From NCBI GenBank assembly GCA_964368835.1, contig CAYJCZ010000001.1, positions 89,481 to 153,480 on the forward strand: a stretch of 64,000 nucleotides of DNA. The letters are read 5' to 3'. The translations under genes and the position numbers were made by a program. Numbering within the stretch: position 1 is the first letter of the stretch; each line of letters begins with the position of its first letter. The notes beneath the pieces were generated by a model. The model saw only the letters and a program-made list of their open reading frames with translations, searched no databases and had not been told where the DNA came from. Positions 9,449 through 49,065 of this stretch are shown in pieces. Origin of the DNA: an uncultured Candidatus Saccharibacteria bacterium. Lineage in GTDB: Bacteria > Patescibacteriota > Minisyncoccia > Phycocordibacterales > UBA6065.

Positions 9449-10141
9449 ATGAAAGCAAGGTTGGAAGATAGAAATAAGGCCATAGAATTAAGAAAGCAGG
9501 GTCACAGCTACAAGGAGATCCAGGCTTTTGTACGTGTGTCTAAGGGGCTACTTTCTATGTGGCTCTCAGATCTCAAGCTGTCCTCGGACGAGGAAAAGAG
9601 GTTACACACAAAGCTTCAGGAACGTAAAAATAGGGGAAAGCTAAACTCAAAGATCTTAAATAATTCCAGGCGACTTGATCGTGAACGAAGGGTAGCAAAG
9701 GAAGGGGAGCAGATGTATAAAAAGTGGAAAAACGATCCACTGTTTCTTATGGGTGTGATGCTGTTTTGGACACAGGGTTCACAGTCGTCTCCTGATTTTA
9801 ATTTTATGAGTAAGGACACCGACATGATCTTTGTGATGAACGCATGGGTTCAAAAGTATCTTGGTGTAGGGAAGGAGGATGTAAAAGTAAGGATTTTCCT
9901 GCCAGAAGGCTCACAATCACATGGGATCACTGGTTTTTGGGCTAAAAATCTGGGTATTTCCGAGGATTTGATAAAGGTTTCACGTGAAAAGTCCCGTAAA
10001 GTGGCCTTAAAAAATGATCCTTTCAATAAAGGGTGTGTAAGACTAACGATTTTTGGCGTTAGATATAGGCGACTTATGACTATATGGCAGAAACTGACGA
10101 TAGATTTCCACGGAAAGGCTTTACTTGGCCATAGAATCTAA
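9449..10141 (+). CDS. hypothetical protein with N-terminal helix-turn-helix
   Basis: MKARLEDRNKAIELRKQGHSYKEIQAFVRVSKGLLSMWL resembles the HTH of small DNA-binding or transposase N-domains. No catalytic domain recognised. Start moved to the internal ATG. Confidence 0.45.
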   Translation: MKARLEDRNKAIELRKQGHSYKEIQAFVRVSKGLLSMWLSDLKLSSDEEKRLHTKLQERKNRGKLNSKILNNSRRLDRERRVAKEGEQMYKKWKNDPLFLMGVMLFWTQGSQSSPDFNFMSKDTDMIFVMNAWVQKYLGVGKEDVKVRIFLPEGSQSHGITGFWAKNLGISEDLIKVSREKSRKVALKNDPFNKGCVRLTIFGVRYRRLMTIWQKLTIDFHGKALLGHRI

Positions 10142-10145
10142 AAAT

Positions 10146-10221
10146 TGGTGCTTCCGGAGGGATTCGAACCCCCAACAACGGTTCCGAAGACCGGTATGAT
10201 ATCCATTTCACTACGGAAGCA
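10146..10221 (-). tRNA. tRNA-Arg (anticodon TCG, tentative)
   Basis: Read on the minus strand: TGCTTCC acceptor paired with GGAAGCA, T-arm GGGGGTTCGAATCCCTC, 3-prime CCA encoded, anticodon loop CTTCGGA. Confidence 0.7.
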
Positions 10222-10280
10222 ATGTGCATATCATACGTGAAAATGAATATAAATCAAAAATATGATAGGATTTTTGGTAG

Positions 10281-10493
10281 ATGATCCCAATAAATCGACA
10301 ACGAGCGATAGATGACTTCATTCTGTTTACAACACCGCAGCCTTTTGATACAAGGCCCATGGCTAGTCCGGTAAAGACTGGCTTTACAGGCACAACACTT
10401 GCAGTTAGCCATGTTGATCCTAAGACAGGTAAGCATCCGCCTGGAGATGTACCGTCTGAGGAGGCAGCAAAGCAAATCACCCAAGAGGGGTGA
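10281..10493 (+). CDS. possible 70-aa ORF (alternatively part of a small RNA)
   Basis: The ORF ends inside a strong hairpin plus T-run (ATCACCC-aaga-GGGGTGAT-TTTTT). The region is GC-rich and lies between two tRNAs; coding status is uncertain. Confidence 0.25.
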   Translation: MIPINRQRAIDDFILFTTPQPFDTRPMASPVKTGFTGTTLAVSHVDPKTGKHPPGDVPSEEAAKQITQEG

Positions 10494-10547
10494 TTTTTTC
10501 TTAACAATTTGGAAAATATTCATTGTTGGTGTAGTATTTTCGCTATC

Positions 10548-10618
10548 GCGGGTATCGTTTAGTGGTAGGACACGTCCTTGCCAAGGATGAGGTGAGAGTT
10601 CGATTCTCTCTACCCGCA
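10548..10618 (+). tRNA. tRNA-Gly (GCC)
   Basis: GCGGGTA acceptor, anticodon stem-loop CGTCC-TTGCCAA-GGATG, T-arm GAGTTCGATTCTC. No encoded CCA. Followed by a hairpin plus T-run at 10627-10650. Confidence 0.75.
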
Positions 10619-10969
10619 CAAAGTAAAAAGCGCCTCTTGGGGCGTTTTTTGTTGCTATAAAAGGGACATTCGCCTGTCTTTGAAGTAAAGAGCGGTTTTG
10701 AAACATTAAGGGCATGAATTGCGTATAAAAAAATTCTAAAATACCGCAATAGGGTATGTGTTTTTTGAAAAACTGTGGATAACTCTGGGGATTGTGTTTA
10801 AAAGACAGTCTTTGAGAATTGCGACTAAATCTGTCTTTTGTCCTTATAAGCGCTCTATAAGGCCATAAATTGACATTTCGAATATTAGATTAAGTAATTC
10901 ACAGATTTATCCACGTCTAACAACTTTTCAGTTTAGATTTACTTTATCTGCCTGTGAAATGATGGAAAA

Positions 10970-11368
10970 ATGAAGAAATTTACATCACCAAGCCAGAAAA
11001 CCGGTGAGTTTGCTGAGAATCTTGCTGCTTTATACTTGAAAAAGATGGGTTTCACTATTCTCGATAGAAACTATACTCAAAAATGGGGAGAGATAGATAT
11101 AGTGGCTAGAAAGGGGAGAATTGTTCATTTTGTTGAGGTAAAGAGTGTTACACGTGAAAACTTTGCTACTTTTGCTGGTGATGAAGCGCGTCCAGAAGAC
11201 CAGATGCATGTTCGAAAACAAACGCGACTCATAAGGACAATAAAGACATATCTAGTCTCGCACGAGGTTGTCGACTGGCAATTTGACCTTTTGGCCTTGT
11301 ATCTCGATCATGCCCAAAGAAAAGCCTATGTAAGGCCTTTGTACGATATTATCTTAGGAGAACATTAG
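10970..11368 (+). CDS. YraN/UPF0102 family endonuclease-like protein
   Basis: GEFAENLAALYLKKMGFTILDRNY...GEIDIVARKG matches the conserved UPF0102 (YraN) N-terminal motif. Confidence 0.75.
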   Translation: MKKFTSPSQKTGEFAENLAALYLKKMGFTILDRNYTQKWGEIDIVARKGRIVHFVEVKSVTRENFATFAGDEARPEDQMHVRKQTRLIRTIKTYLVSHEVVDWQFDLLALYLDHAQRKAYVRPLYDIILGEH

Positions 11369-11412
11369 GTTTTTTGGCTGATTATGCTAGTATGTGGAAG
11401 TTCAAAAAATAT

Positions 11413-11485
11413 CGGGGCGTGGTGTAACGGCTAACATGCTTGACTTGGGATCAAGTGACTCTGGGTTCGAATCCCAGCGCCCCGA
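11413..11485 (+). tRNA. tRNA-Pro (TGG)
   Basis: CGGGGCG acceptor paired with CGCCCCG, anticodon stem-loop CTTGA-CTTGGGA-TCAAG, T-arm CTGGGTTCGAATCCCAG. Confidence 0.75.
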
Positions 11486-11505
11486 CAAGACGAAGTTTTT
11501 GGTGG

Positions 11506-11820
11506 ATGATGATCTGTATGCCAAAAAACTCTTTCATTAACGATAGATATAAGAAAGTGAGGGGAGGTTACTCACGTCTTTTAGAGATTTCCTGTGAAAA
11601 GTGCAAAGAACCTGTTTGTTCGTATCAGAAGGATGGTCCAGGTGGATTACGTAGGATGTATCTAGACCGAATACTTAATCCTCGCGTCTCAATAACTCGA
11701 AAAGACTTTTCTTGTTCAAACAATCACTTGCTTGGAGTAAAGATTGTGTACGAAAAAGAAAACCGACCAGCATTTCGACTTTTTGTAGATGCTATAAAGA
11801 AAAAGATTATCAAATCCTAA
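11506..11820 (+). CDS. small Cys-rich (zinc-ribbon-like) hypothetical protein
   Basis: CEKCKEPVCSY and CSNNH Cys pairs. The tracked ORF starts inside the tRNA-Pro, so the start was moved to the first ATG after the tRNA. Its stop overlaps the next gene's ATG (TAATG). Confidence 0.45.
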   Translation: MMICMPKNSFINDRYKKVRGGYSRLLEISCEKCKEPVCSYQKDGPGGLRRMYLDRILNPRVSITRKDFSCSNNHLLGVKIVYEKENRPAFRLFVDAIKKKIIKS

Positions 11821-12125
11821 TGTCTAAAAAATTTACGCGGACAATTGAAGACTTTGTGTGCGAACACTGCGGCACTGCTGTTGTCGGTAATGGCTATACA
11901 AATCATTGTCCAAAATGTTTATGGTCAAAGCACGTTGATATAAATCCAGGAGACAGGGAAGAGACGTGTGGTGGACTTATGGAGCCAATTCAAATAGAAA
12001 AAGAAGGTAAAGATTTTAAACTTACTCAGAAATGCGTGAAGTGTGGTTTCGCTAGGCGAGATCATTTGCGTGACGAAGACAATTTCGAAGCTTTCCTAGC
12101 GCTCTCTCGAAAATTCGGCCAGTAG
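11820..12125 (+). CDS. RNHCP-domain zinc-finger protein
   Basis: CEHCGTAV...GYTNHCPKCLWSKH...CVKCGF matches the RNHCP motif family. Start at the internal ATG overlapping the upstream stop. Confidence 0.6.
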   Translation: MSKKFTRTIEDFVCEHCGTAVVGNGYTNHCPKCLWSKHVDINPGDREETCGGLMEPIQIEKEGKDFKLTQKCVKCGFARRDHLRDEDNFEAFLALSRKFGQ

Positions 12126-12436
12126 ATTTCGTCAAGAAGATTAAAACGACTTATCTATAGGGCTAATTGACTTTTTCGTTTGAAATGGTGAATTCGGATG
12201 GTAATTGAAAGAAAATGCACTCCATCCATCCTAATTCTCTGAGTAAGGCCCGACAAACTTTTTATTGTCATTGGAATCAATCGGTGTCAAATTTTTCAGC
12301 CAGCTTTGACAGTACAATTCTCTCGTGATTTTTTATATTTCGTTTAGAATACAGGTCTATACTTTCATATGAAAGGGAGGACAGCACTCATCTTTCATAA
12401 AGGTTTTGTTTATAAGAACAACTAATGTGAAATACC

Positions 12437-12514
12437 ATGACAGGTACACCAAACACCCCAAAACAGCCTAAGCAGCCTAAGAAGCCAGCGGCTCCAGTTC
12501 CTCCAACTGCGTAA
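12437..12514 (+). CDS. possible 25-aa Pro/Lys-rich micro-ORF
   Basis: ATG...TAA encoding MTGTPNTPKQPKQPKKPAAPVPPTA, followed directly by a terminator hairpin (AAAACTCCGGA-tta-CTCCGGAGTTTTG at 12519-12548). Confidence 0.2.
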   Translation: MTGTPNTPKQPKQPKKPAAPVPPTA

Positions 12515-12616
12515 GGTATTCAAAACTCCGGATTACTCCGGAGTTTTGTTTTACACGGCTTAACCATTAGAAATTAATAGGGAAGTATGATACATTGATT
12601 CTCGTCAAAGTTACTT

Positions 12617-12687
12617 GCGGGCGTGGTTTAATGGTAGAACGATTGCCTTCCAAGCAGTACGTCCGGGTTCGATTCCCGGCGCCCGCA
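12617..12687 (+). tRNA. tRNA-Gly (TCC)
   Basis: GCGGGCG acceptor paired with CGCCCGC, anticodon stem-loop ATTGC-CTTCCAA-GCAGT, T-arm TCCGGGTTCGATTCCCGG. Confidence 0.75.
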
Positions 12688-12765
12688 CATTTTGTGAGAG
12701 ACCGAGGTGTTTGAAGGTTGATAAAGTCAGTACACAGACTTTATTAATTAAGTTATTGTAGGGGT

Positions 12766-21340: not shown

Positions 21341-22594
21341 ATGGTATGGATGAAATCTCTTTTTGTAAAAATTCTCTTCGTTCTTTCACTCTCTGTACTT
21401 CCTCTCTTTGCATCCGCTGATGTTGGAAACGTCACTGGCTACGCATGGTCCGACAATATTGGTTGGATTAGTTTTACGTGTCTTAACACGAGCACGTGTG
21501 CAAGTAATGGTGGTAACGACTACGGTGTTACAGAAAATCCTGGTGGCAGTCTCACCGGCTACGCATGGTCAGATAATATAGGATGGGTCAAATTTGGCGG
21601 TCTCGCTAGTTTTCCATCTGGAGCGGGTACTGTTGCTCAGAACGCTCAGCTTGTTGGAGCAAATCTTGTTGGATGGGCACGAGCGTGTGCCGGAACAGCA
21701 GGAGGAGATTGTTCAAGCATGACAAGTCGAACAGACGGTTGGGATGGTTGGATTTCACTTGGAGGTACAAACTACGGTGTAACAAAAGTTGGTCAACAGT
21801 TTACGGATTATGCATGGGGCGGAGATGTAGTAGGTTGGATACTTTTTGACATACAAAATAAATTCCCAGCTGTCTGTGCTGGATGTGGAGTTATAGGTGG
21901 CGGCGGAGGAAGCAATGCGGATCTCGATGTGCGAAGTGGTGGAGCAGGTGGACCATCAATAGTAGGTAACGGTGCAGTCCTCTACGGCACTATCCCAACT
22001 TTTGTGTGGACGATCGTATCTCCGACAATGACATGCGATATCACAAAAACAGCTGGAGGCACAGCATTCACCTCTATATTAGGAGAGACCACATCAGGCT
22101 CTCGTGCCGGCAATCCTCTTAGCTCAGCTGGTCTTCATACATATCATCTTGAATGTACAAACCCTGCATATACAAAAGATGTAAGCTTTACCGTAGCGCC
22201 TCAAGTCACAGGCTTCTCAATGGGTGGAACTGAAACGGCTCGCATTCAATTCTTGGGATCAGGTCCTGCGAATTCTGAAATAAAGTCTCTATTTGTAACT
22301 CCTGGAGGTGGATTTAGTAATCCAGTTACAATTTCTATAACAGGTTTTCCTACTCCTCCTGCAGGAACCACCTTCACATATTCACTCGGAGGTAGTCCGT
22401 TTGTAGCAAATCCACCATCAGTTGTGATCAGTGATCCGTATCTCGCAGGTCAGACATTCCAGATTCGTTCATCAAGACCGATTTCAAATACATACACAAT
22501 CACTCTCACAGGTACAGCAAGCGGAGCATCAAATGTAACAAAGGACATCATTCTTGATCCTCGAGCATTTGATCCTTCATTTAATGAAATTTAA
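21341..22594 (+). CDS. secreted protein with novel Trp-rich GYAWSDNIGWI-x-F repeats
   Basis: Signal peptide, then at least four repeats: GYAWSDNIGWISF, GYAWSDNIGWVKFGG, DGWDGWISLGG, DYAWGGDVVGWILFD. C-terminal Thr/Ser/Gly-rich beta-rich region. No family recognised. Confidence 0.6.
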   Translation: MVWMKSLFVKILFVLSLSVLPLFASADVGNVTGYAWSDNIGWISFTCLNTSTCASNGGNDYGVTENPGGSLTGYAWSDNIGWVKFGGLASFPSGAGTVAQNAQLVGANLVGWARACAGTAGGDCSSMTSRTDGWDGWISLGGTNYGVTKVGQQFTDYAWGGDVVGWILFDIQNKFPAVCAGCGVIGGGGGSNADLDVRSGGAGGPSIVGNGAVLYGTIPTFVWTIVSPTMTCDITKTAGGTAFTSILGETTSGSRAGNPLSSAGLHTYHLECTNPAYTKDVSFTVAPQVTGFSMGGTETARIQFLGSGPANSEIKSLFVTPGGGFSNPVTISITGFPTPPAGTTFTYSLGGSPFVANPPSVVISDPYLAGQTFQIRSSRPISNTYTITLTGTASGASNVTKDIILDPRAFDPSFNEI

Positions 22595-22886: not shown

Positions 22887-23474
22887 ATGACTCGAATTAC
22901 AACGATTACCATAGCAACACTAAGCGCACTCTCACTCACTCTCTTTCCACTTGGAGCAGGTGCGTGGACAGGTCCGTCCGCAACACCGCCAGGTGCAAAC
23001 ACTGCGGCTCCTCTTAATGTGTCTGGCAACTCTCAGGCAAAGGCAGCAGGACTTCTTCTTGCAACTTCGGCGGCTACGTACGGTCTTCTTGTGCAGAATG
23101 GAAACGTGGGTATTGGGCTTCTCAATCCAGTCTACAAGCTTGAGATTGCAGGGAGTGTAGGAGCAGGTGCTTTCTTCTATACGTCAGATCGAAATCTCAA
23201 GAAGAATATTTCTCCATTGAACGGCTCTCTTTCAAAAATTTTGAGCCTCGAAGGTGTTTCGTTTGCTTGGAAGGATACTGGAGCAAAGAGCGTGGGCCTC
23301 GTAGCGCAGGATGTTGAAAAGGTGTACCCAGAGCTTGTTCATACAAATCCTCAGAGTGGTATCAAGTCTGTTGAATACGGAAACCTTGTAGCACCACTTA
23401 TTGAAGCAATCAAAGAACAGCAGAAGCAGATTGATCAATTAAAAGCAGAGGTGAAGGCACTTAAGGGGGAATAA
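22887..23474 (+). CDS. secreted Gly/Ala-rich protein with C-terminal intramolecular-chaperone (peptidase S74-like) domain
   Basis: C-terminal SDRNLKKNI...LSLEGVSFAWKD...VGLVAQDVEKVYPELV...VEYGNLVAPLIEAIKEQQKQIDQLKAEVKALK matches the tail-fibre/endosialidase C-terminal chaperone domain pattern (SDxRxK auto-cleavage region, IAQE..PELV, LIEA.KEL, coiled tail). Confidence 0.65.
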   Translation: MTRITTITIATLSALSLTLFPLGAGAWTGPSATPPGANTAAPLNVSGNSQAKAAGLLLATSAATYGLLVQNGNVGIGLLNPVYKLEIAGSVGAGAFFYTSDRNLKKNISPLNGSLSKILSLEGVSFAWKDTGAKSVGLVAQDVEKVYPELVHTNPQSGIKSVEYGNLVAPLIEAIKEQQKQIDQLKAEVKALKGE

Positions 23475-23478
23475 ATAT

Positions 23479-23928
23479 ATGGATCCAATAATTCAAGCAA
23501 ACCCAGAGCAAAAGCAATCTCCGAAATTTGTGTTAGTTGGGATACTTTTGTTAGCTGCTGTTGGTCTTGGTGGCTACATCTATATGACACCTGGTACCTC
23601 TAAGACAGTAGAGCAAGATGGATATACCCAAAAAGAGGCAGTGGAATATGTAAAGACATCTGCAACAAATGCAGTAGCTGCAAATTCAGTTAACATCTCT
23701 GGTTGCGCACCTGATGTAAAAGTAGCTCAGGTAAATATGGGGGATGCTTTGGAATTTAATAACCCCGACAGAATTGGTCACACGATTTGGTTCAGTCCCG
23801 ATCAAACATACCTCATTCCACTTCAAAGTAAGGTAAGTATCAAGCTCAATTTTTTGAAATTTCCAGGCGTAGTTGATTATATGTGCGATTCCAAGTTTGT
23901 CGGCCAGGTTTTTATTACCAATAAATAA
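23479..23928 (+). CDS. hypothetical membrane-anchored protein
   Basis: N-terminal TM ([20 protein letters not shown]), about 125 aa extracytoplasmic domain with 2 Cys. Confidence 0.45.
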
Positions 23929-25811
23929 TGAAAGCGCTAACTATGAGAGCTTTAATACGAAAAATCGGAATAGTTTGCTTTACTGTTTTGTCACTTGTGG
24001 TGGTGCTTGGGAATAATGCTTTTGCCGCTGAGCGCTATCAAGTGGATCCTGGGCAGACGGCTATAATTGATGAATGGGGTGTTTGTTACAACGTAACAAA
24101 CAATGTTCCTAATCCACCTGTCTTTGTCCCAACTAGAACATCGGGGGAATGGAGTTCATTTTATACAAACGTACCGCCTAATGTGCAGTTGACACCATGT
24201 GTTGCTGGAATTCCTGGGTGTATGGATCCTGTGGCTACAAATTATGATCCTGCAGCAACTATAAATGTTGGATGTACATATGCACCCGGCTGCGATCCTA
24301 TTGCTGGAACCACTTGTACCTCTGGTAGCAATGTGTGCGGCCAGTACACGACAGACAGTTATGACTGTACAGGTAGTTGTCCTGCGGTCACACCGCCTGA
24401 CACAAACTGTCCTATGATTGTTGTGGGATGTACAAGTCCCGGCGCTCTAAACTATAATCCCGCAGCTAATGTGAGTGGTCTTTGTCTATGGCCAACAGGA
24501 TGTATGACTCCTGGTTATGACAATTATGATCCAGCTGCTGTGGTTCCTGATTCTTGTAATTGTAATGCTGGTAGGTCATGGAACGGTAATGCGTGTCAGG
24601 ATGATGCGCTTCCAATTGACGGAGGTTGGTCGGCTTGCAGTGTTTCTTGTGGGGGTGGAACTCGTAGCTGTGATAATCCAGCACCAGCAAACGGAGGTGC
24701 GGCTTGTACCGGTTCAACAGATTGCAACACACAGGCTTGCCCTACAGGTCCTGTAGATGGAGGTTGGTCAGGATGGGGACCTTGCTCTGCTTCTTGCGGA
24801 GGAGGAACTCAAAGCCGTTCATGTGATAACCCTGTACCTGCAAACGGAGGCGCTGCCTGTTCTGGTAGTTCATCACAAGCTTGCAACACTCAGGCGTGTT
24901 TAGCGGGATGTACAACTGAAACCTGTGGAGCAACTGCTCCTAATGGTGATGTTTGTGGTTCACCTGTTGATCCTGGATGTGGTGGCGGTCCAGTCGGACC
25001 TCGTGGATGTAGTACTGAAACTTGCGGAGCAGTAGCTCCTAATGGAGACATTTGCGGCTCACCAACTGACCCTGGATGTGGTGGCGGTCCAGCATGTGTT
25101 CCAAGTTGTGCAGGAAGGACTTGTGGGGCAACTGATAGTTGCGGCACAGGAACTTGCGGTTCACCAACTGACCCTGGATGTGGTGGCGGTCCAGCATGTG
25201 TTCCAAGTTGTGCAGGAAGGACTTGTGGGGCAACTGATAGTTGCGGCACAGGAACTTGCGGTTCACCAACTGACCCTGGATGTGGCCCAATTGGCCCTGC
25301 AGGTTGTACGACTGAGTCTTGCGGAGCAACTGCTCCCAACGGTGATATGTGTGGAGGGGTTTGTGATTCAGGTTGCCCAGCAGCAGGATCACCTGGATGT
25401 ACTGGAGCTTGTACTACAGAAACCTGCGGTGCTCAATCTCCTAACGGATCTGTCTGCGGTAGTAATTGTGATGCGGGATGTCCTGGTGCTGGTGGACCAG
25501 GTTGTGGAGGAGGCGGGGGCGGAGGAGGACCTACGTGTGACCCAACATGCGGGTGCGGAATGCACGAGGAGTTCGTTTGCGATATTATGGATTTGGAATG
25601 CACGTGCGATTCATCCCCGTCTGGATGTAGTTTAGATACTCCACCGACATCATGTTCAGCTTTTGAGTGTAATTGTAACGAATATGGCGAGTATCCTAAT
25701 TGTACTGATTGGTACGGTAATCCCGGAGGATTCAGTTGTACGGTTACGGGTTGTGGTATGAACTGTAATCTTGCCTGCACCATAGGTTCAGATCGATGTG
25801 TGCCAGATTAA
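23928..25811 (+). CDS. secreted cysteine-rich protein with two thrombospondin type-1-like repeats and tandem 34-aa Cys-rich repeats
   Basis: Signal peptide. TSP1-like [39 protein letters not shown] and [43 protein letters not shown]. Then [28 protein letters not shown] repeats. Confidence 0.7.
25081..25284 (+). repeat. perfect 102-nt tandem duplication (2 copies) inside the Cys-rich gene
   Basis: gtggcggtccagcatgtgttccaagttgtgcaggaaggacttgtggggcaactgatagttgcggcacaggaacttgcggttcaccaactgaccctggatgtg occurs twice back-to-back. It encodes identical 34-aa units, with older diverged copies flanking. Confidence 0.85.
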
Positions 25812-25844
25812 ATTTAAAAGTCCTGTTAAGTTTATATAATTAAA

Positions 25845-26396
25845 ATGAACAACACACTTAAGATAGTCATCGCCTTACTTCTATGTATTTGTGTTGGATA
25901 TTTTATTTATAGTAAACAGACAAAGAGTACATCGCCACAATTGAATAATAGTGGAACAACTAGCATAAATACTTATAAGTTTGCCGAAGGAAGTTTGCCA
26001 AATAATCCGAATATTAAAACCAGTGAACAGAAGTTTCTTTTTGAGAATCTTTTGAAGCGAGATTCAACATTGGAGGAAAGAAAAAAAATTCTAACTATGG
26101 CAGTAAATGCAGCCGTGGATACCAATGCGCTCGTCCTTAGCGAAAATTGCCTGTCTAATCCGCCTGTAATTAAAATGACGTACGCTTCGAAGTTAAGTGT
26201 CTCAAATACATCAAAAACTGATCAACAGATGATAATTGGTACAAGCAGTGTAATATTGCCAAAAAATTCAGTAAAGACTGTCACGCTTGAGCAGTTGGGA
26301 GTAGGGCAGCTTGCTTCTAAAGGAGTAGTGTTGAAGAGTTATGCCTGCACAGGATTAGATTATCCAGCTGGGTTCATTGTTGTATATCCAAACTAA
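25845..26396 (+). CDS. hypothetical membrane-anchored protein
   Basis: N-terminal TM, Asn/Ser/Thr-rich extracytoplasmic region. Confidence 0.45.
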   Translation: MNNTLKIVIALLLCICVGYFIYSKQTKSTSPQLNNSGTTSINTYKFAEGSLPNNPNIKTSEQKFLFENLLKRDSTLEERKKILTMAVNAAVDTNALVLSENCLSNPPVIKMTYASKLSVSNTSKTDQQMIIGTSSVILPKNSVKTVTLEQLGVGQLASKGVVLKSYACTGLDYPAGFIVVYPN

Positions 26397-27660
26397 AATT
26401 TTCAACAGGCAATTTTTTGCTTTTAGTTGCCTTTTCTTAATTGTATTAAGTGGCTTTTTTCTACGCTTTTATAGTATTGGTTCGCAGTCTTTATGGATAG
26501 ATGAAATTTATACTGTGAACGCTGCATTTTCTGTACTCGAACACGTTATCCCTCTACTTGACTCCGGTCAAATATATACAAATAATTTTGTTTCTGTATA
26601 TCTCACGGCTCTTACTATTAAGATTGCTGGGTTTGATGTATTTAATCCTTGGGCCTCAAGGTTACCGTCTGTTTTTTTTGGAACCTTACTCATCCCATTA
26701 GTGTATTTTCTTTCAAAGAAAGTATTCGAGAATGAAAAAGCTGCATTTTTTTCGGCGTTTTTAATTGCTTTTTCGTATCTTGAAATTGCATGGTCTAGGC
26801 AGGTAAGAGGATATGCTGCACTAGCTTTTTTTATAACCATAGCTTTGTATCATCTTTGGAATTATCTTTTGGAAGCAAAAACACGGAATTTGTTAATATT
26901 TTTTGTGTATTATGTACTCGCATGTCTATCTCACTGGGCTGCACTTACATTTACACCTTCATTACTATTAGTTCTCGTAATTAAAAAACAGATACCAGTT
27001 GAAAAGCTGTGGGGGAAGATATTGTTTTTTACGCTATTTGTAATACCTCCTTTGATTCTTTTAAAATTTAAGTATCCGGTTTCAGGAGGGATTTTCCTAA
27101 GGTATGCAGTCTTCCCATTTTTTCCTATCGTGAGTATTCTTTTTGGCTATATTGTTGTTAGGTTATTTGAGTACCCTTCAGTAAAAGGCAGGTTAGTTCC
27201 AAAATTAGTTTTGGCAGGTTGTGTTGCGATAATTGTTTTCATGATGCCACTTCAGCTTATTCCACTTAAGACACACGAACTTTATCTCCAGGCCCCCCAG
27301 CCAGATTTTAATAAGGTTTTTTCAATTATTCTAAATGAAAGAGAGAGTGATGATGTTGTCATCACATTGCGTCCAGTTTTGAGTCGTCTGTATTTAGGTA
27401 GCGACGGTCTATGGCTCTCGCTTAAATCAAAAAAAGTTGATGAAATTGATATGTACGTTGGAGCAAAACCACTTGTTAAATCATCCGAGTTAATGGACGT
27501 AATTAATTTTGGGAGTGGTTTTATTGTGGTGGATGGGCACTCGTTTTTCACTATTCTACTGAAAAAATATCCAGAAATTTTTGAGCATCCCAAGCTTAAA
27601 CTTAGAATGTATTCCTGTGGTGCAAAACAATTAGACTGTATCTGGCTTTACCGTTTTTAA
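26377..27660 (+). CDS. GT-C fold glycosyltransferase (PMT_2/ArnT-like, GT39/GT83 type), polytopic membrane protein
   Basis: About 11 TM helices with a first-loop DE motif (SLWIDEIYTVNAA) characteristic of PMT/ArnT-type polyprenyl-phosphate-sugar dependent transferases. Confidence 0.6.
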   Translation: MLYIQTKIFNRQFFAFSCLFLIVLSGFFLRFYSIGSQSLWIDEIYTVNAAFSVLEHVIPLLDSGQIYTNNFVSVYLTALTIKIAGFDVFNPWASRLPSVFFGTLLIPLVYFLSKKVFENEKAAFFSAFLIAFSYLEIAWSRQVRGYAALAFFITIALYHLWNYLLEAKTRNLLIFFVYYVLACLSHWAALTFTPSLLLVLVIKKQIPVEKLWGKILFFTLFVIPPLILLKFKYPVSGGIFLRYAVFPFFPIVSILFGYIVVRLFEYPSVKGRLVPKLVLAGCVAIIVFMMPLQLIPLKTHELYLQAPQPDFNKVFSIILNERESDDVVITLRPVLSRLYLGSDGLWLSLKSKKVDEIDMYVGAKPLVKSSELMDVINFGSGFIVVDGHSFFTILLKKYPEIFEHPKLKLRMYSCGAKQLDCIWLYRF

Positions 27661-27771
27661 AGTTACAATTAGAACACACGTTTGCTTTTTTTTCTAATAG
27701 GCGTATGCTTTAGCTAGAGCACTATATGTTGTCAATGATGTTGTTTAAAATCATGTTTTTGGAGGTAATAA

Positions 27772-28818
27772 ATGAAATCTACAGGCTTTGTTTCTGTTTG
27801 GTTTCCGTACGTGGCGATTTCGCTACTACTGTTTGTTGAATGTTTTTCAGCTCCGAACGTAAAGACGGCTTTTGTTCCGTCATTCGTTCCAACACCACTC
27901 GAGGACCTCACTACCACAGATCCTTCAATCCGTCGTCAGATTCCACTTCTCAGCGGTTGGGTTGTCAGAAATCAAGCTAGAATTGTTGGAAATCCACGAT
28001 TGATAATCAAGGATGGTAGTTTGGTGGGTGTCGATGTTGATTATGTTAATGATGAACCCAGTCCGATTGAGTTGGGCTACAAACGGTTTGAAACTCCTTT
28101 TGCACTCCCTTCAGACGTCTCTGAAAAGAGGGTAGAAGAGGAGGTTTGGAAGAAAATTTGCAAACAGGGTTCAGACCAGACAAGTGACTTCTTCGGCAGT
28201 TATTCCTTGGGGCTAAATTTAGTTCAAGGGGATAAGGAAAGAATTGTATACGGTATTTGGTATCTACGAAAAAATACCACCTATACTCGATACGATTCGA
28301 AGAAAAATAAGTTTGTCACATCGGCACCACAGGTTTATCTGAGAAGGATAATGGAGCTTGCTGCATTGCCAGCTCCGACGCCGTTACTGGTTACAGAGAG
28401 GCCAGATCTGCGTTTGGTGACCGAGGAGAAAGAAGTTACCCTTACCCTGACAGCGGCACATGTACCCTTCAAATTGGAGGTTGATTCCAAGTTGGCCACC
28501 GTGATGGAGCCTGTAAGGGTCGTTGCGGAGTGGTTGGATGTCCAGCCTGTTTTAAGGAATGGAAAGATCGATCAGCTTAAGATTGTTCGGGTGGCCGCAG
28601 GTACTCCTTTAGAGAAGGCTGGTGTCAGGGTTGGCCAGCAAATCCGGAGTATCCAAGGGGTGAACGTAATCGGACTGACTGAGCGAGAGTATGATCAAAA
28701 GATGATCGAAACTCCTGTAAAGGGAACATTTCAGATCGAGGTGATTGATTCCTTTGGTAAGATTACTCGTATTAATCTGATCCAGAGCCCGTCTCCACTA
28801 GCATCTGTATCTCCTTGA
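27772..28818 (+). CDS. secreted hypothetical protein with C-terminal PDZ-like segment
   Basis: Signal peptide. C-terminal IVRVAAGTPLEKAGVRVGQQIRSIQGVNV resembles a PDZ binding loop. Confidence 0.5.
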   Translation: MKSTGFVSVWFPYVAISLLLFVECFSAPNVKTAFVPSFVPTPLEDLTTTDPSIRRQIPLLSGWVVRNQARIVGNPRLIIKDGSLVGVDVDYVNDEPSPIELGYKRFETPFALPSDVSEKRVEEEVWKKICKQGSDQTSDFFGSYSLGLNLVQGDKERIVYGIWYLRKNTTYTRYDSKKNKFVTSAPQVYLRRIMELAALPAPTPLLVTERPDLRLVTEEKEVTLTLTAAHVPFKLEVDSKLATVMEPVRVVAEWLDVQPVLRNGKIDQLKIVRVAAGTPLEKAGVRVGQQIRSIQGVNVIGLTEREYDQKMIETPVKGTFQIEVIDSFGKITRINLIQSPSPLASVSP

Positions 28819-28836
28819 GATTGTTTCAGGCACTTG

Positions 28837-28868
28837 CAAACCAATGAATTCGTTCATTGGTTTTTTAT
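28837..28868. terminator. bidirectional terminator
   Basis: AAACCAATGAA-ttcg-TTCATTGGTTTTTTATTTT. Confidence 0.6.
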
Positions 28869-29122
28869 TTTCGTGAAACGAAGGAAAGATTATACAGCGC
28901 CAGAAAAAAAGGAAATAAGTTTGCAAGAAACCCAACTAAATCCTTTTTGCCTAACGAAAAGTAAGCCATAAGAAGCAGACTGCCAGATATGCTTGTGTAC
29001 CAAAAGTAGACAGGAAGTACACTTTTTTGAGCCTGTCTTGATGCAATAACCTGTATGACCCACCGTAAGGAGAAAAGCGCTACGCCTGTGAATCCGACTA
29101 TATTCCAGAAATAACTAGTCAT
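28865..29122 (-). CDS. LAB_N (lipid-A-disaccharide-synthase N-terminal like) small membrane protein
   Basis: WNIVGFTGVALFSLRWVIQVIASRQAQKSVLPVYFWYTSISGSLLLMAYF matches the about 90-aa LAB_N family usually paired with a GT2 polyprenyl-phosphate glycosyltransferase. Start moved to the internal Met. Confidence 0.6.
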   Translation of the reverse strand: MTSYFWNIVGFTGVALFSLRWVIQVIASRQAQKSVLPVYFWYTSISGSLLLMAYFSLGKKDLVGFLANLFPFFLALYNLSFVSRK

Positions 29123-29768
29123 TTTTAATTTTCGATTTAAATATATAAATATCAACTAATCCTTTAATGGTTCTATTGCTGAGATTATATTTCGTCTTCC
29201 CCGCAAATCTTTTTCTTGCCTGGATAGGGACCTCAATCAAAGTCAGACCTGCACTCTCCAAAAAACTTGGAATAAACCTGTGCATCCCTTCAAAAAGATG
29301 TAAGTGGGGAAGGTGACTCTTTCGAATAAGCTTCATTGCACCAGTATCCCGAGCGCTGTCCCGTGTAAATATACTTCTTACCCGGTTTGCGATTTTTGAG
29401 GCCGCACGATTCACGATACTCCTTTTTCTATTGATTCGATAGCCACATACAAAATCCGCCTGTAGCGAAGCCTCAAGTAATTTATGAATATCCTGGGGAT
29501 CACATTCACCATCTCCGTCCATGAGTACACATAATTCGTGACTTGCCTGATTAAGACCGTGCCAGGTCGCATGGCTTTGGCCTTTTCTCTCTGCAAAAGA
29601 GAGTAATGTAACGTTTTCCCGCTCTGAGACAATGGCCTGTGTTCGGTCTGTACTGCCATCGTTAACCACAAGTATTTCTGCTGCAGGGTGCATTTTTTCT
29701 ACCTCGTCGAGCACAAATCTAATGCTTTCTTCTTCATTGTGGACAGGGATAATAATAGAAAACTTCAT
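29115..29768 (-). CDS. GT2 family glycosyltransferase (polyprenyl-phosphate sugar synthase, DPM1/ArnC-like)
   Basis: MKFSIIIPVHNEEESI...VVNDGSTD...DGDGE GT-A DxD-type motifs. About 217 aa. Confidence 0.8.
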   Translation of the reverse strand: MKFSIIIPVHNEEESIRFVLDEVEKMHPAAEILVVNDGSTDRTQAIVSERENVTLLSFAERKGQSHATWHGLNQASHELCVLMDGDGECDPQDIHKLLEASLQADFVCGYRINRKRSIVNRAASKIANRVRSIFTRDSARDTGAMKLIRKSHLPHLHLFEGMHRFIPSFLESAGLTLIEVPIQARKRFAGKTKYNLSNRTIKGLVDIYIFKSKIKND

Positions 29769-29835: not shown

Positions 29836-30582
29836 TTACTTTGCGAGGGCTGCTTTAATCTGGCTTTCAAGGCTGTCTGCTGAGACTGCGCCGCCGAGTA
29901 CTGTATTACCCTTTGCGGTAACAATCACGCTGTAAGGCGTACCTTTTGCTCCAGCTGAGATGCCACTCTGGTACTGCGCTTCTACTTTAGCTGCATATTT
30001 GCCGCTATCAAGGCAGGTCTGGAACTTTGCTCGATCAAGACCAATATAAGCAGCGATGTTTGGAAGTTCTGATGCTTCGAGTCGGTTGTTTGTTGGGCTT
30101 ACTTCAAACAATCGGTCGATATATTTCCAGAATCCATCATTTCCACCAAGTTCTGCTGCACATTCAGATGCTTCAGCTTCTTTTCGTGCCTTTGAATGGA
30201 GAGCATCAAGAGGGAAGTGTCGATATACCCACGCAACATCAGTTCCAGCAAATTTTGCTGTGACTGTCTTGAGTGTTGAATGGAACTGCTTACAGAACGG
30301 ACATTCGAGATCAGAATATTCAACTATGACTGCTTTTGCCTTTGCGTTACCACGGATATGGTCAGCAGAGGTAACTGCTGGAACCTTGACCGCTGCTGCA
30401 GCTGTAGGAGCCGCAGCCGTAGGATTTGCAGCTACTGCTGCAGTTGTTCCTTTTACTGCCATGCCTCCAACATTGCTTAGGCCAAAATAAAGTCCTGCGC
30501 CAATAAAGAGTCCCGCGAGGGCAACTGAAAGGGGAAGCGTGAGCCAATCCCTATAATCTGATTTTTGATCAATGTGTGTCAT
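29836..30582 (-). CDS. DsbA-like thiol:disulfide oxidoreductase, membrane-anchored
   Basis: N-terminal TM, Ala-rich linker, thioredoxin-fold CPFC active site (YSDLECPFCKQFH). Confidence 0.75.
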   Translation of the reverse strand: MTHIDQKSDYRDWLTLPLSVALAGLFIGAGLYFGLSNVGGMAVKGTTAAVAANPTAAAPTAAAAVKVPAVTSADHIRGNAKAKAVIVEYSDLECPFCKQFHSTLKTVTAKFAGTDVAWVYRHFPLDALHSKARKEAEASECAAELGGNDGFWKYIDRLFEVSPTNNRLEASELPNIAAYIGLDRAKFQTCLDSGKYAAKVEAQYQSGISAGAKGTPYSVIVTAKGNTVLGGAVSADSLESQIKAALAK

Positions 30583-30652
30583 GCGTATAAACGTGTGAAA
30601 AAATAACAGGTTGATTGTATCACGCTCGATATATTTTTGTTATGCTTTACGT

Positions 30653-31105
30653 ATGTTCAAGCGACAGTTTAAAAGTATGTGGCGCACCAATGCACCCAAG
30701 AGGATTTTCAAGAAAATTATCCTCGCGCTTCTTATCACCCTCGTTGTGTACGGTATCGGTTCGCTTCTGGTTAAAGACACCGTTGAGGCACCGCAATCTC
30801 CGGTCGCAACAGTGTTTATGACAAAAGATGGCTTTGTTCCAACAGAAATTGCCATAAAGCGTGGCCAATCAATTGAATTTATCAATAGTTCACCTGTTGG
30901 ATGTTTGGCAGGGGACGCGGAGTGTAATGTCTGGCCGGTATCAGATCCGTATCCATCTCACGATCTTTATCCGGAGTTTAATTCACAAAAACCAGTACAG
31001 CCGGGCACTTCCTGGATTTTCACCTTTAAAAAATCAGGTAATTGGGGTTTTCACGATCATTTAAGGTACAAGAATCGTGGTGTGATCCGTGTTATTGGCG
31101 AGTAA
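30653..31105 (+). CDS. membrane-anchored protein with possible cupredoxin-like domain
   Basis: N-terminal TM, then a beta-rich segment with Cys/His residues (CLAGDAEC...GFHDHL). The family call is tentative. Start moved to the internal Met. Confidence 0.35.
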   Translation: MFKRQFKSMWRTNAPKRIFKKIILALLITLVVYGIGSLLVKDTVEAPQSPVATVFMTKDGFVPTEIAIKRGQSIEFINSSPVGCLAGDAECNVWPVSDPYPSHDLYPEFNSQKPVQPGTSWIFTFKKSGNWGFHDHLRYKNRGVIRVIGE

Positions 31106-31165: not shown

Positions 31166-32914
31166 ATGTACATCGAAGAGCAACAACTAAAAACCTTCAT
31201 CGTTGATTCCGGTCTCGTTTCAAAAAAAGACATCGCTGATGCCGAAAAGGAAGCACGATCAAAAAAAACCGGTCTCGGTGAAATACTTGTTGTACAAGGA
31301 AAGCTATCAGAAGACGATCTTCGTAAAACCCAAGCGTATATTTTGGGAATTCCTTTCGTGGACCTCAAAGGGCAGAAGATTGATTTTACGGTTCTTTCAC
31401 TTGTTCCAGAACCAATTGCACGTAGCCACAATATAGTCGCTTTCAAGAAAACGTCTGACACGCTCGAGGTTGCCATGCTTGATACCGACGACCTTCACGC
31501 AATCGACTTTATTAAAAAGAAGGTGGGTCTGCGCATCATGCCGCGTCTGACCGATGCTGAATCAATCAAATCGGTTCTACTCCAGTATCAAAAAAGCCTC
31601 AAAGCTGAGTTCGGAGACCTTATCAAGAAGGAAACAGCTACTCTAAAGGCTCTTTCAGAGGAAATAGGGGGTAAGGCAAACGAGGGGGATCTCAAAAAGA
31701 TGGCCGAAGACCTCCCGGTTATTCGTGTCGTTGATACGCTTTTGAAGCATGCCATCATACAGGGTGCATCCGACGTTCATATTGAACCGATGGAAAAGGA
31801 GCTTTTGGTGCGATATCGAATTGACGGTCTTCTCCACGATGCTATGGTGCTCCCTAAAGAGGCAGAAACCTCCATTACGGCGCGTATCAAGGTGCTTTCG
31901 AATCTGAAGCTTGATGAGAAGCGTTTGCCTCAAGACGGGCGTTTTAAAGTCGAAATGAACGAAGAGAAAGTGTCGCTTCGTGTGTCGATTTTGCCAACAT
32001 TTTATGGTGAAAAGACAGTTATGCGACTTTTGCGAGAATCTGTTTCAGGTTTTAGTCTTGAGCACCTTGGTTTTCATGGGGAAGCGCTCGAACGTATCCA
32101 TGCAGCAACAAAGCTTGCGACGGGTATGATCCTTGCGACGGGACCTACAGGATCTGGTAAGTCTACAACCCTCTATACAGTGCTTGATATTTTGAATACA
32201 CCTGACGTAAACATCTCAACTGTTGAGGACCCGGTTGAATATCAGATGCCTCGAGTTAATCAGACCGCTGTTCGCCCAGATATCGGCTTTACATTCGCAG
32301 TGGGACTACGAACTCTCGTTCGACAAGACCCCGATATCATCATGGTGGGAGAAATTCGAGATAACGAGACTGCTGCGCTTGCCGTAAACGCTGCACTTAC
32401 TGGTCACTTGGTGCTTTCTACGCTTCACACCAACTCTGCTGCTGGTGCAATGCCACGACTTCTTGATATGAAGATCGAGCCGTTCCTTCTTGTATCGACG
32501 CTTTCGGTGGTGATTGGTCAGCGACTTGTGCGAAGACTCACCGAATCTCGAGAGCGCAGGCCTCTTACAAAAGCGGAACTCACTGCACTAGGCAAAGTAG
32601 TGGATCTTGATCGAATGCTCAGTATCTTGCGCGCAGAAAAAGCAATTGGTCCAAAAGATGAGTGGGACAAAGTTATGTTTGGAGTGCCGCGAGTGACACC
32701 CGATAACGATGGATACAAAGGGCGAGTTGGTATTCACGAAGTTTTGAAAATGTCTCCAACTATTAAGGAGCTTATTATGAAAGGGGCAACATCGGGCGCT
32801 ATAGAAGAACAAGCAAAGCGAGAGGGAATGGTTACGATGCTTGAAGACGGTATTTATAACGCTGCTCAAGGATATACGACTATCGAAGAGGTGCTTCGTG
32901 TGGTGACGGAATAA
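31166..32914 (+). CDS. pilB: type IV pilus assembly ATPase PilB (GspE family)
   Basis: N-terminal GSPII_E N-domain, Walker A LATGPTGSGKSTTLYTVL, Asp/His boxes, Walker B. About 580 aa. Confidence 0.9.
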   Translation: MYIEEQQLKTFIVDSGLVSKKDIADAEKEARSKKTGLGEILVVQGKLSEDDLRKTQAYILGIPFVDLKGQKIDFTVLSLVPEPIARSHNIVAFKKTSDTLEVAMLDTDDLHAIDFIKKKVGLRIMPRLTDAESIKSVLLQYQKSLKAEFGDLIKKETATLKALSEEIGGKANEGDLKKMAEDLPVIRVVDTLLKHAIIQGASDVHIEPMEKELLVRYRIDGLLHDAMVLPKEAETSITARIKVLSNLKLDEKRLPQDGRFKVEMNEEKVSLRVSILPTFYGEKTVMRLLRESVSGFSLEHLGFHGEALERIHAATKLATGMILATGPTGSGKSTTLYTVLDILNTPDVNISTVEDPVEYQMPRVNQTAVRPDIGFTFAVGLRTLVRQDPDIIMVGEIRDNETAALAVNAALTGHLVLSTLHTNSAAGAMPRLLDMKIEPFLLVSTLSVVIGQRLVRRLTESRERRPLTKAELTALGKVVDLDRMLSILRAEKAIGPKDEWDKVMFGVPRVTPDNDGYKGRVGIHEVLKMSPTIKELIMKGATSGAIEEQAKREGMVTMLEDGIYNAAQGYTTIEEVLRVVTE

Positions 32915-47669: not shown

Positions 47670-47747
47670 TGGTGGGGTGCCTAGAGGGAATCGAACCCTC
47701 GACGCCGGGACCACAATCCAGCGTTTTACCACTAAACTATAGGCACC
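47670..47747 (-). tRNA. tRNA-His (GTG) with genomically encoded G-1 and 3-prime CCA
   Basis: Minus-strand read: G-GTGCCTA...CTGGA-TTGTGGT-CCCGG...GAGGGTTCGATTCCCTC-TAGGCAC-C-CCA. The extra 5-prime G opposite discriminator C is the His identity element. Confidence 0.75.
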
Positions 47748-47757
47748 ATTTTTAAGG

Positions 47758-47790
47758 GAAACGGCGGGCGGTATACCGCCCGCCGTGTTT
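47758..47790. other. perfect palindromic hairpin between tRNA-His and tRNA-Leu
   Basis: GGCGGGCGG-tata-CCGCCCGCC (9-bp GC stem). Possible processing or termination signal. Confidence 0.4.
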
Positions 47791-47794
47791 CCTT

Positions 47795-47876
47795 GTGCGC
47801 GGAAGAGGACTTGAACCTCCATGCCTTGCGGCGCTACCACCTCAAGGTAGTGTGTCTGCCAATTCCACCATCCGCG
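47795..47876 (-). tRNA. tRNA-Leu (GAG), long variable arm
   Basis: GCGCGGA acceptor, anticodon stem-loop CTACC-TTGAGGT-GGTAG, variable arm GCGCCGCAAGGC, T-arm GGAGGTTCAAGTCCTCT. Confidence 0.75.
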
Positions 47877-47971
47877 CATTTACTAGCTTTGGCATAATAG
47901 CTTAAACACTCTGGATTTTCAACTTTCTATAGGAGATCAAAAGAAAACCCGCTCTGTGAGCGGGGTGTTTC

Positions 47972-48403: not shown

Positions 48404-48495
48404 GAAATTGATGTATTAACGTGGTCGTTAATCTAACATGCAGGCATAAAATTAGCAAGAAAGAGCCATATTTGGCTCTTTCTTTGCGATTTCTG

Positions 48496-48568
48496 TGCGC
48501 CCTGAGGGACTTGAACCCCCGACCTTCTCAGTGTAAATGAGCTGCTCTACCAACTGAGCTAAGGGCGC
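48496..48568 (-). tRNA. tRNA-Val (TAC, tentative)
   Basis: GCGCCCT acceptor, D-arm AGCTCAGTTGGTAGAGC, anticodon loop TTTACAC, T-arm GGGGGTTCAAGTCCCTC. Confidence 0.7.
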
Positions 48569-49024: not shown

Positions 49025-49065
49025 CATGAAAAATAAAACCACTCCAGTGCGGAGTGGTTTTATTT

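Follow-up and report, generated by a model that had tools for sequence, protein, structure and literature searches.

Genomic Setting of a Cysteine-Rich Modular Protein

We have analyzed a window of 64,000 nucleotides (nt) from contig CAYJCZ010000001.1, a segment of bacterial chromosome encoding NusA, trigger factor, RNase Y, CCA-adding enzyme, PilB, PilC and pilins, and concentrated on one gene (hereafter the target gene) coding for a cysteine-rich protein that carries two thrombospondin type-1 repeats, hereafter abbreviated as TSR. The gene lies 2.8 kb from nusA, the product of which is 89-92% identical to proteins from metagenome-assembled genomes of Candidatus Parcubacteria, Paceibacterota and Taylorbacteria. 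Its start codon overlaps by one base with the end of the preceding gene, which encodes a protein of 149 amino acids (TAATG, with the stop codon TAA; g149 in table 1), and both genes belong to a series of seven genes on the + strand, between 21341 and 27660, which overlap or are separated by gaps of at most 34 nt, an operon-like packing. The GC content at third codon positions (GC3) is 0.275, similar to the 0.285-0.42 of the neighbouring genes. Together, the GC3, the vicinity of nusA and the TAATG coupling indicate that the target is native to a chromosome of Paceibacteria, a group of the candidate phyla radiation (CPR; also called Patescibacteria). The region had been described as GC-rich, which holds only relative to the window (54% GC in 24900-25500 and 50% in the gene, vs 43% in the window); the raised value is due to codons for Cys, Gly, Pro and Ala and not to foreign codon usage. 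The long spurious reading frames listed earlier (24890-25339 on the - strand, 25042-25635 on the + strand and 25433-25783 on the - strand) are present and are either antisense or out of frame.

The target protein contains 108 Gly, 77 Cys and 63 Pro residues (17% Gly and 12% Cys) and is identical to an NCBI protein encoded by a 174-kb contig (P0001; P and L numbers label the proteins and loci compared in this analysis). One Cys lies in the hydrophobic N-terminal leader and the other 76 are in the mature part; such an even number would be expected of a protein in which every Cys is disulfide-bonded. The putative Sec signal peptide is followed by an N-terminal domain, hereafter N-domain, that defines the family: the target has the leader and the domain of ~65 residues with the pattern (F/W)GxCxN(V/I)(T/A)N...(V/I)PTxTxxEW...C that it shares with P0024/L003, L091, L093, L094, L097, L099, L072, P0077/L002, L006 and P0250. 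Identity in this domain is 47-60% to P0024 and L091 and 30-39% to P0077, L072 and L006, while a metagenome scan with a two-sequence N-domain alignment retrieved only the already known P0024 contig. Homologues of g149 sit directly upstream of N-domain genes elsewhere. The small GCTDP and CGQ modules that come next in the target also occur, according to a survey with regular expressions, in P0024, L091, L048, L049, L058, L069 and L075, and they recur in further CPR and DPANN proteins. Outside the TSRs the protein matches none of the Pfam, NCBIfam and PHROG models, and NCBIfam has no model for the protein. The target is an undescribed family variant built around a known domain.

Table 1. Coordinates of the target gene, its modules and the surrounding features in the window.
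Feature	Position	Strand	Evidence or remark
417-aa secreted protein with repeated GYAWSDNIGW(I/V) motifs	21341-22594	+	no Pfam, NCBIfam or PHROG match
Signal-peptide protein with Peptidase_S74 (tail-fibre intramolecular chaperone) C-terminus	22887-23474	+	conserved left flank
Hypervariable island, ~5.8 kb	23478-29262	.	blastn against syntenic L091, protein identities
g149, 149-aa membrane-anchored protein	23479-23928	+	start/stop-coupled to target
Target gene, 627-aa Cys-rich modular protein	23928-25811	+	list of open reading frames, sequence
Predicted Sec signal peptide, residues 1-34	23928-24029	+	basic n-region, hydrophobic core, AFA/AE cleavage site; read from sequence
N-domain, residues ~35-98 (DEWGVCxNVTN...VPTxTxxEWxSF...C)	24030-24221	+	defines family
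Three GC(T/M)DPxAxNY(N/D)PxA modules and one CxSxxNxCGQ...CxGSC module	24222-24617	+	regular-expression survey
TSR1, short subtype (single Trp, three small deletions, six Cys)	24618-24743	+	profile, alignment
TSR2, canonical (six Cys)	24756-24902	+	Pfam best stretch residues 279-324, PDB matches, fold search
Array of six Cys-rich units of 32-41 aa (Crep)	24909-25532	+	sequence
Crep unit 1	24909-25007	+	sequence
Crep unit 2	25008-25106	+	sequence
Crep unit 3	25107-25208	+	sequence
Crep unit 4	25209-25304	+	sequence
Crep unit 5	25305-25409	+	sequence
Crep unit 6	25410-25532	+	sequence
Perfect tandem tract X-Z-X-Z-X, period 102 nt, in frame	25059-25285	+	sequence, Logan contigs
Acidic Cys-rich C-terminal region and stop codon	25533-25811	+	sequence
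g183, 183-aa protein with N-terminal hydrophobic segment	25845-26396	+	absent from L091/L003 island type
GT-C membrane glycosyltransferase (PMT_2/PMT)	26377-27660	+	alternative ATG 26515 called in Logan contigs
Terminator-like hairpin	28838-28863	+	
LAB_N small membrane protein	28865-29122	-	gene call in L084 mapped to window
Family-2 glycosyltransferase (GT2), candidate polyprenyl-phosphate-sugar synthase	29115-29768	-	
DsbA/thioredoxin-like oxidoreductase	29836-30582	-	conserved right flank

Identity of the Thrombospondin Type-1 Repeats

The two segments that the initial annotation had likened to TSRs are found at residues 231-272 and 277-325, and profile, sequence and structural predictions concur in identifying them as true TSRs. 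The assignment to the Pfam family TSP_1 (PF00090), proposed before any search had been made, is borne out by a score of 32.7 bits against a gathering cut-off of 21.6 (E 8.6e-8, in two stretches); the TSP1_spondin profile (PF19028) scores 22.5, below its cut-off of 41. In phmmer searches of the PDB the best matches are the TSRs of thrombospondin-1 (7yyk, 3r6b and 1lsl; E 4e-16 to 1e-12, residues 232-325), followed by UNC5, properdin and ADAMTS-5. We considered whether the resemblance was an artefact of low-complexity Cys/Gly sequence, which the Pfam gathering score and the phmmer E-values rule out. An AlphaFold2 (AF2) model of the TSR pair (one of five) reached moderate confidence (pLDDT 70), and its predicted fold corresponds to the elongated three-stranded fold of TSRs. 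All top 25 matches obtained with Foldseek in the PDB are TSR structures (E 2e-8), with the provisos that TM-scores are low (0.31) for this two-domain model and that the matches are partly driven by sequence.

Both repeats contain six Cys with TSR spacing, C-x3-C-x6-9-C-x10-11-C-x5-7-C-x4-C, as deduced from sequence and alignment. In the CWR layers of typical TSRs, a WxxW(xxW) motif of strand A stacks with Arg of strand B; the corresponding residues are WSGW and one Arg (in TQSR) in TSR2, and a single Trp and one Arg in TSR1, which is missing the first Trp and has three small deletions. A repeat of L072, from a Candidatus Taylorbacteria, retains the same deletions and is 78% identical over 115 nt; hence TSR1 represents a conserved short subtype and not a decayed copy. 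Compared with eukaryotic TSRs such as those of thrombospondin-1, properdin, UNC5 and ADAMTS proteins, the window repeats agree in profile, sequence and predicted fold, having the same six-Cys spacing, the WxxW of TSR2, the CSxSCGGG motif, a Pro-rich strand C and a tandem arrangement. They differ in strand B, which has TQxR with one Arg instead of RxR, and in the shortened TSR1 with its one Trp; moreover, their host is a bacterium having no glycosylation machinery of the endoplasmic reticulum, and the accompanying modules are unknown in eukaryotes. The motifs for O-fucosylation (CxxS/TCxxG) and C-mannosylation (WxxW) are present in the repeats, and the GT-C gene adjoins.

A further six-Cys module of ~48 residues (TGTWTAANCPTACGT..SYTCTGGNGQCSGTAP..SCSAT..C) was noticed in five copies in L072 (6012-7199) and in one copy in L094 (residues ~325-365). 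Judging from its start, Trp-x4-C-x3-CG, it may be a divergent relative of the TSR.

Replacement of Modules and of a Whole Island among Relatives

The loci of relatives, which were retrieved via their NusA proteins, reveal how variable the surroundings of the target are. Locus L091, with a NusA 95-96% identical to that of the window, has the same gene order: NusA, a 412-aa gene, a 93-aa gene, the S74 gene, a 145-aa gene, the gene for an N-domain protein and PMT_2, with LAB_N, GT2 and DsbA later on. Nucleotide similarity between window and L091 ends at 23477 and resumes at 29263, with one patch of 87 nt in between (blastn). The island so delimited contains g149, the target, g183, PMT_2, a PDZ protein, LAB_N and part of GT2. 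Identity between the respective proteins is 95% for NusA, 82% for the S74 protein and 80% for the DsbA-like protein, vs 27% for g149, 41% for the target and 36% for PMT_2. The S74 protein is similarly conserved in L091 and L093 (82-87%), whereas the window PMT_2 is only 35-36% identical to those of L091, L003 and L099. The N-domain protein of L091 has 796 residues and contains neither TSR nor Crep units.

In L003 the flanks are close to those of the window (GT2 92% identical, the last 24 residues of S74 100%), whereas the island is of the L091 type, 56-70% identical to L091 and 25-40% to the window; at least two deeply divergent island types thus exist on similar backgrounds. GT2 itself is 92% identical between the window and L003 (5828-6475) and 64% between the window and L091, and this mosaic of GT2 and island in L003 points to recombination at the island borders.

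Variation also occurs within the gene. L093 and L094, which come from two runs, have NusA proteins of identical sequence and agree at 98.9% of positions over 3,280 nt, but all similarity (L093 1-1368 vs L094 1-1131) ceases immediately behind the N-domain, after ~316 codons of the gene; beyond this point one continues with CGQ repeats and the other with a W-module and a TSR. From the sequences, this divergence would represent allelic module arrays at the strain level, with contig chimeras as the less likely option. The N-domain gene directly follows the S74 gene in both contigs, which end inside it, and in each a Laminin_G_3 lectin domain precedes the N-domain. At the same position L099 encodes an N-domain protein of 276 residues with a TSR of the TSP1_ADAMTS type. 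In general, the N-domain gene follows S74 and usually a membrane protein of ~145-170 residues and precedes PMT_2, as seen in the window, L091, L003, L099 and partly L072. L098 (GCA_035546035.1, a 380-kb contig with NusA 92% identical) has no island, no N-domain gene and no PMT_2 block; there, the S74 protein has 518 residues, and next to it come an Ala/Ser-rich protein of 261 residues and then PilB. The replacement of modules and of the whole island among relatives supports the view that the target is a variable surface protein, by a mechanism other than slippage.

Comparable S74 proteins, with Sec or pilin-like leaders and the motif AWTxPSxxPPxGNxxxPLNVG, are encoded in the window, L072 (several paralogues, 8302-8898 and 9669-11424), L006 (3329-5458, with a pilin-type leader) and L099 (4876-5688, with a Shufflon_N domain). 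These proteins may form cellular fibres of CPR bacteria.

The Crep Array and Its Tandem Duplication

Downstream of the TSRs the initial annotation had recognized at least seven Cys-rich units; our count is six, grouped pairwise into three subtypes, and a close fit to the motif given earlier is seen in the first two alone. A full HMMER scan of residues 325-627 against 1.84 billion representative proteins produced four non-self matches, suggesting that Crep units are almost unique to the target. One match, P0250, is an N-domain protein with five similar units and another, P0251, is a matrixin-like protease with about nine related units of 29 residues. The other two, P0252 and P0253, look like out-of-frame translations of similar repeats that were deposited as proteins. 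Apparent homology of the Crep array to 48 TSR loci (tblastn at ~30% identity, run with no composition correction) was discarded as an effect of Cys/Gly bias.

Within this array the segments 25081-25182 and 25183-25284 are identical at 102 of 102 positions, as originally reported, and exact identity with a period of 102 nt extends over the 227 nt of the tract in table 1, corresponding to 2.2 copies, which is a lower bound (Tandem Repeats Finder: 99% matches, 2.3 copies). The tract can be written as X-Z-X-Z-X, where X is a sequence of 23 nt (TCACCAACTGACCCTGGATGTGG) and Z one of 79 nt. Since adjacent units are paralogues of older date (79-82% nucleotide identity between units 1 and 2), direct repeats of 23 nt existed 102 nt apart, and misalignment between two such repeats is expected to yield precisely this product. 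The tandem arrays detected in the target have periods of 99 and 102 nt only, in frame, and include no homopolymer or short simple-sequence tract.

Scaffold gaps (runs of N) were observed inside the Cys-module arrays of two homologues, at ~6140-6170 in L072 and within the reading frame starting at 5314 in L069. In assemblies, genes with arrays of this kind are truncated or broken systematically and are likely under-counted.

Distribution of TSRs in Prokaryotes and Phages

To place the repeats in a wider context, we used two peptide patterns derived from the TSR alignment to search prokaryotic genomes, each species being represented by a single genome and the source genome of the window not being in the set, and found, after confirmation with tblastn, at least 214 prokaryotic loci encoding the same TSR subtype as the window. 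The statement that this domain is overwhelmingly eukaryotic, made initially, is accurate for the literature but does not extend to genomes, given these loci and the phage contigs described below. Our literature search found bacterial thrombospondin type 3 repeats discussed and nothing on type 1 repeats, nor anything relevant on Cys-rich surface proteins of CPR bacteria. Type 3 repeats, reported in OmpA-like and giant proteins of Omnitrophota (10.1101/2023.11.21.568195), share with those of the window the name and the extracellular location; their motif is unrelated, being calcium-binding and rich in Asp, and does not form the type 1 fold. Bacterial TSRs appear to be undescribed in the literature, although automated Pfam annotation already flags such proteins.

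The best 80 of the 214 loci were sorted by hand from record titles, in a ranking by similarity to the CPR query that favours CPR relatives: 36 belong to Patescibacteria, 10 to Bdellovibrionota and relatives, 10 to Gammaproteobacteria and Burkholderiales, 10 to unclassified bacteria, three each to Rickettsiales and Omnitrophota, two each to Planctomycetales and Archaea (Pacearchaeota and Methanosarcinales), and the remaining four to other groups with one locus each. Some TSR loci sit on contigs of 0.3-1.8 Mb. The repeats follow type IV pilin leaders in L021 (Pfam N_methyl plus TSP_1), L017, L033 and P0085 and vWA domains in L048 and P0044, and some of the prokaryotic TSR proteins combine them with the small Cys modules of the window protein. 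IMG/VR contributed 11 further loci, and in two phage-like contigs, L102 and L103, TSR and Gly-rich proteins are encoded directly downstream of tail-fibre genes; the tail fibre of L102 is of the S74 type. Per repeat unit, these prokaryotic and phage proteins (including the phrog_2295 relatives of L102 and L103) are of the same subtype and 60-87% identical, with the consensus NGGWSxWxxCSxxCGGGTQTRxCxNPxPxNGGxxCxGxxxQxCNTQxC. They differ in their context, which is a pilin leader, a vWA domain or a Gly-rich phage protein, whereas the window protein has the N-domain and the island.

The median identity per unit of the window TSRs is 69-70% to prokaryotic and 53-56% to animal units. The top bit scores of the target are to multi-TSR proteins of molluscs and cnidarians, because of the many repeats present in each of these proteins; P0028, a protist-like metagenome protein, has TSRs 69% identical to those of the window. 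With at least 214 prokaryotic loci and a native GC3, the target is neither an isolated oddity nor a recent import from animals. The literature has treated the TSR as a domain of animals and apicomplexans; that it recurs in CPR, Bdellovibrionota, Omnitrophota and DPANN, and in the tail-fibre regions of phages, has implications for where the domain originated and for how cell-attaching microbes build receptors.

The paralogues following the tail-fibre genes number two or three (L102 3645-7213 and L103 4911-7200). They have a conserved N-terminus, one TSR and a long Gly-rich C-terminus ending in VVIIKYKYQ or similar, and they match phrog_2295 (of unknown function) and phrog_863.

Proposed Function and Alternative Explanations

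We consider that the target is a native modular protein, presumably Sec-exported and fully disulfide-bonded, which most likely serves as an adhesin or receptor-binding protein for the surface of a partner or host. Following export by Sec, its cysteines would be oxidized outside the cell, as suggested by their even number in the mature part and the nearby DsbA-like gene. Behind the conserved leader and N-domain comes an array of small Cys modules that is variable and comprises, in this strain, three GCTDP, one CGQ, two TSRs of the prokaryote/phage subtype, six Crep units and the Cys-rich tail. The set of GT2, LAB_N and GT-C may glycosylate the protein. The N-domain, in turn, may serve for docking to the S74 fibre protein or g149, and the array would bind structures on the partner cell. 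Adhesion is suggested by TSR and LamG being adhesion folds, by the presence of the same TSR subtype on pilins and beside phage tail fibres, by a diversification like that of a specificity determinant and by the lifestyle of cultivated CPR bacteria, which are described as episymbionts (PMC11623550). Diversity arises by two routes. One is the swap of whole islands, seated like cassettes between the conserved S74 fibre-like gene and the conserved GT2/DsbA block, and of the modules that come after the N-domain; the other is local tandem duplication, of which the 102-nt repeat would be the latest event, from X-Z-X to X-Z-X-Z-X.

The likely functional analogy is with apicomplexan TSR adhesins (TRAP/MIC2 and CSP), secreted or surface proteins that attach the parasite to another cell (PMC3417536). 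These are eukaryotic type I membrane proteins linked to a gliding motor and often contain vWA domains, whereas the target has no transmembrane anchor or cytoplasmic tail. Recognition of hosts by the ultrasmall CPR bacteria, and attachment to them, are largely unexplained, with type IV pili alone tested so far (PMC11623550). The locus offers a concrete candidate for this recognition, since its product appears to be secreted and has known adhesion folds (TSR, and LamG in orthologues), and the module swapping between near-identical strains is what a host-specificity determinant would be expected to show.

Other known systems resemble single aspects of the locus. Proteins of the Alp/Rib family of group B streptococci have a leader followed by long in-frame tandem units that are identical in nucleotides and vary in copy number by recombination. 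The target also has a leader and in-frame, nucleotide-identical units tens of residues long, but it has only 2.2 identical copies, no LPXTG anchor and an unrelated sequence, and variation in copy number is a feature of Alp/Rib. In O-antigen and capsule loci, the flanks are conserved and the alternative sets of genes between them, glycosyltransferases included, have diverged deeply; the island is alike in its flanks and divergent sets and differs in that its main cargo is a modular protein instead of a polysaccharide pathway.

Several points weigh against the adhesin interpretation or parts of it. Export and cleavage of the target are predicted from the amino acid sequence, the C-terminus of which shows on inspection no LPXTG/sortase-type or hydrophobic anchor, so that the protein could be released from the cell. 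The AF2 model of the N-domain (residues 28-236, from a three-sequence alignment) has a pLDDT of 33, too low to be of use for assigning a fold. The link of TSRs with cell-attaching (episymbiotic or predatory) lineages is only suggestive, being biased by the ranking with a CPR query, and that of PMT_2 with the target would follow from adjacency and co-variation. Finally, no variant in copy number of the 102-nt unit was seen among contigs that, at k=31, break at the repeat.

A bolder version of the adhesin proposal would see the island as a self-contained host-range cassette, the TSR/lectin-type adhesin of which is exported, oxidized by DsbA, glycosylated by its own PMT_2 and displayed with the S74 fibre, its modules being traded with phage tail fibres and pilins; the TSR would then be an ancient recognition module shared by prokaryotes and phages and not a eukaryotic invention. 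We think this unlikely to be correct in its entirety; if it were, the PMT_2 step would be the prokaryotic counterpart of the Trp C-mannosylation and O-glycosylation that stabilize eukaryotic TSRs.

Among the alternatives, the target had been suggested to be a variable surface protein encoded by a contingency locus, in which the copy number of the 102-nt unit would shift often by slipped-strand mispairing and thereby switch or resize a surface antigen. Neighbouring copies overlap in a perfect identity of 125 nt, reads from two runs contain the repeat, and the true number of copies could exceed the assembled 2.2, which by our reasoning is the maximum that an assembler with k=127-141 outputs when it collapses the cycle of a longer array. 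However, gain or loss of copies of so long an in-frame unit cannot switch expression, the gene contains no simple-sequence tract of the kind mentioned above, no copy-number variant was recovered and relatives vary by replacement of modules and islands. The data on relatives therefore sustain a variable and probably surface-exposed family, while a classical phase-variable contingency locus is unsupported and in our judgement doubtful, although copy-number change may be ongoing.

Alternatively, the cluster could be a domesticated or remnant receptor-binding module of a phage, with an S74 tail fibre and a TSR tip protein, and not a system of cellular adhesins. The gene with the S74 chaperone domain lies two genes upstream of the target, and in L102 an S74-type tail fibre directly precedes TSR proteins. 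Against this, only the C-terminal domain of the S74 protein matches the PHROGs and the seven other genes of the cluster match none; the absence of virion, baseplate or packaging neighbours in this search led us to reject the cluster as a prophage. Moreover, both the S74 protein and the target have Sec-type leaders and the arrangement beside nusA is kept across several species. We regard this explanation as quite unlikely; it would touch the origin of the cluster more than its function, for receptor binding is implied either way.

It is improbable that the target is a non-adhesive Cys/Gly-rich protein, for instance a metal-binding protein or a structural matrix protein of the envelope. Its composition would fit and most of its length matches no known family, but the even number of mature Cys, the regular spacings typical of disulfide domains and the nearby DsbA gene argue for oxidative folding, its orthologues carry lectin and TSR adhesion domains, and such extreme replacement between strains is unexpected for a structural housekeeping protein.

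An assembly artefact as the source of the exact duplication, which had been raised as an objection from the beginning, appears very improbable. The source is a short-read metagenome assembly, and similar repeats break other assemblies or leave gaps in them (L072 and L069). Yet Logan contigs assembled at k=31, which match the window at every base, terminate at 25088 (ERR4405439) and begin at 25256 (ERR4405439 and ERR4405440); either position lies within the tract, at a distance of exactly k-1 = 30 nt from its border, and such breaks require that the reads contain a repeat of at least 30 nt with these borders. Had the segment not been duplicated, no repeat here would exceed 23 nt, too short to break contigs at k=31; hence the Z-X-Z junction is in the reads of both runs, and the duplication is both genuine and recent.

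A eukaryotic contaminant, or TSRs acquired recently by horizontal transfer from a protist or an animal, can be dismissed as most improbable despite the bit scores to molluscs and cnidarians and the similarity of P0028, considering the lower per-unit identity to animal TSRs, the start/stop coupling inside a bacterial operon, the native GC3 and the prokaryotic loci with the same subtype, some on long contigs.

Other Features of the Window

The secreted protein of 417 residues at the start of the gene series is kept beside nusA in relatives (74-87% identical) and has a 43% identical homologue in L022. A promoter scan gave no more sites than were found in shuffled sequence. Three small proteins (23479-23928, 25845-26396 and 30611-31105) have an N-terminal hydrophobic segment and a C-terminal pattern, ...H...YxC(D/T)...G.(V/I)..., that recalls cupredoxins. 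Only the last of them weakly matches Cupredoxin_1 (E 3.9e-4, below cut-off), and the copper ligands look incomplete.

An Rfam scan of the window detected tRNAs only and no rRNA. The eight tRNA genes form two clusters, one at 10146-12688 (Arg-TCG, Gly-GCC, Pro-TGG and Gly-TCC) and the other at 47673-49025 (His, Leu-GAG, Val-TAC and Arg-TCT). The window also contains genes for type IV pili, namely PilB (31166-32914), PilC (52291-53505) and three small N_methyl pilins (53512-54982). TSR-pilin fusions are known from other loci, with none in this window. A 615-aa pilin-like protein with a CarboxypepD_reg domain is encoded at 56793-58640, and a 593-aa protein with a choice-of-anchor R domain lies among the pilus genes (region 52291-62582).

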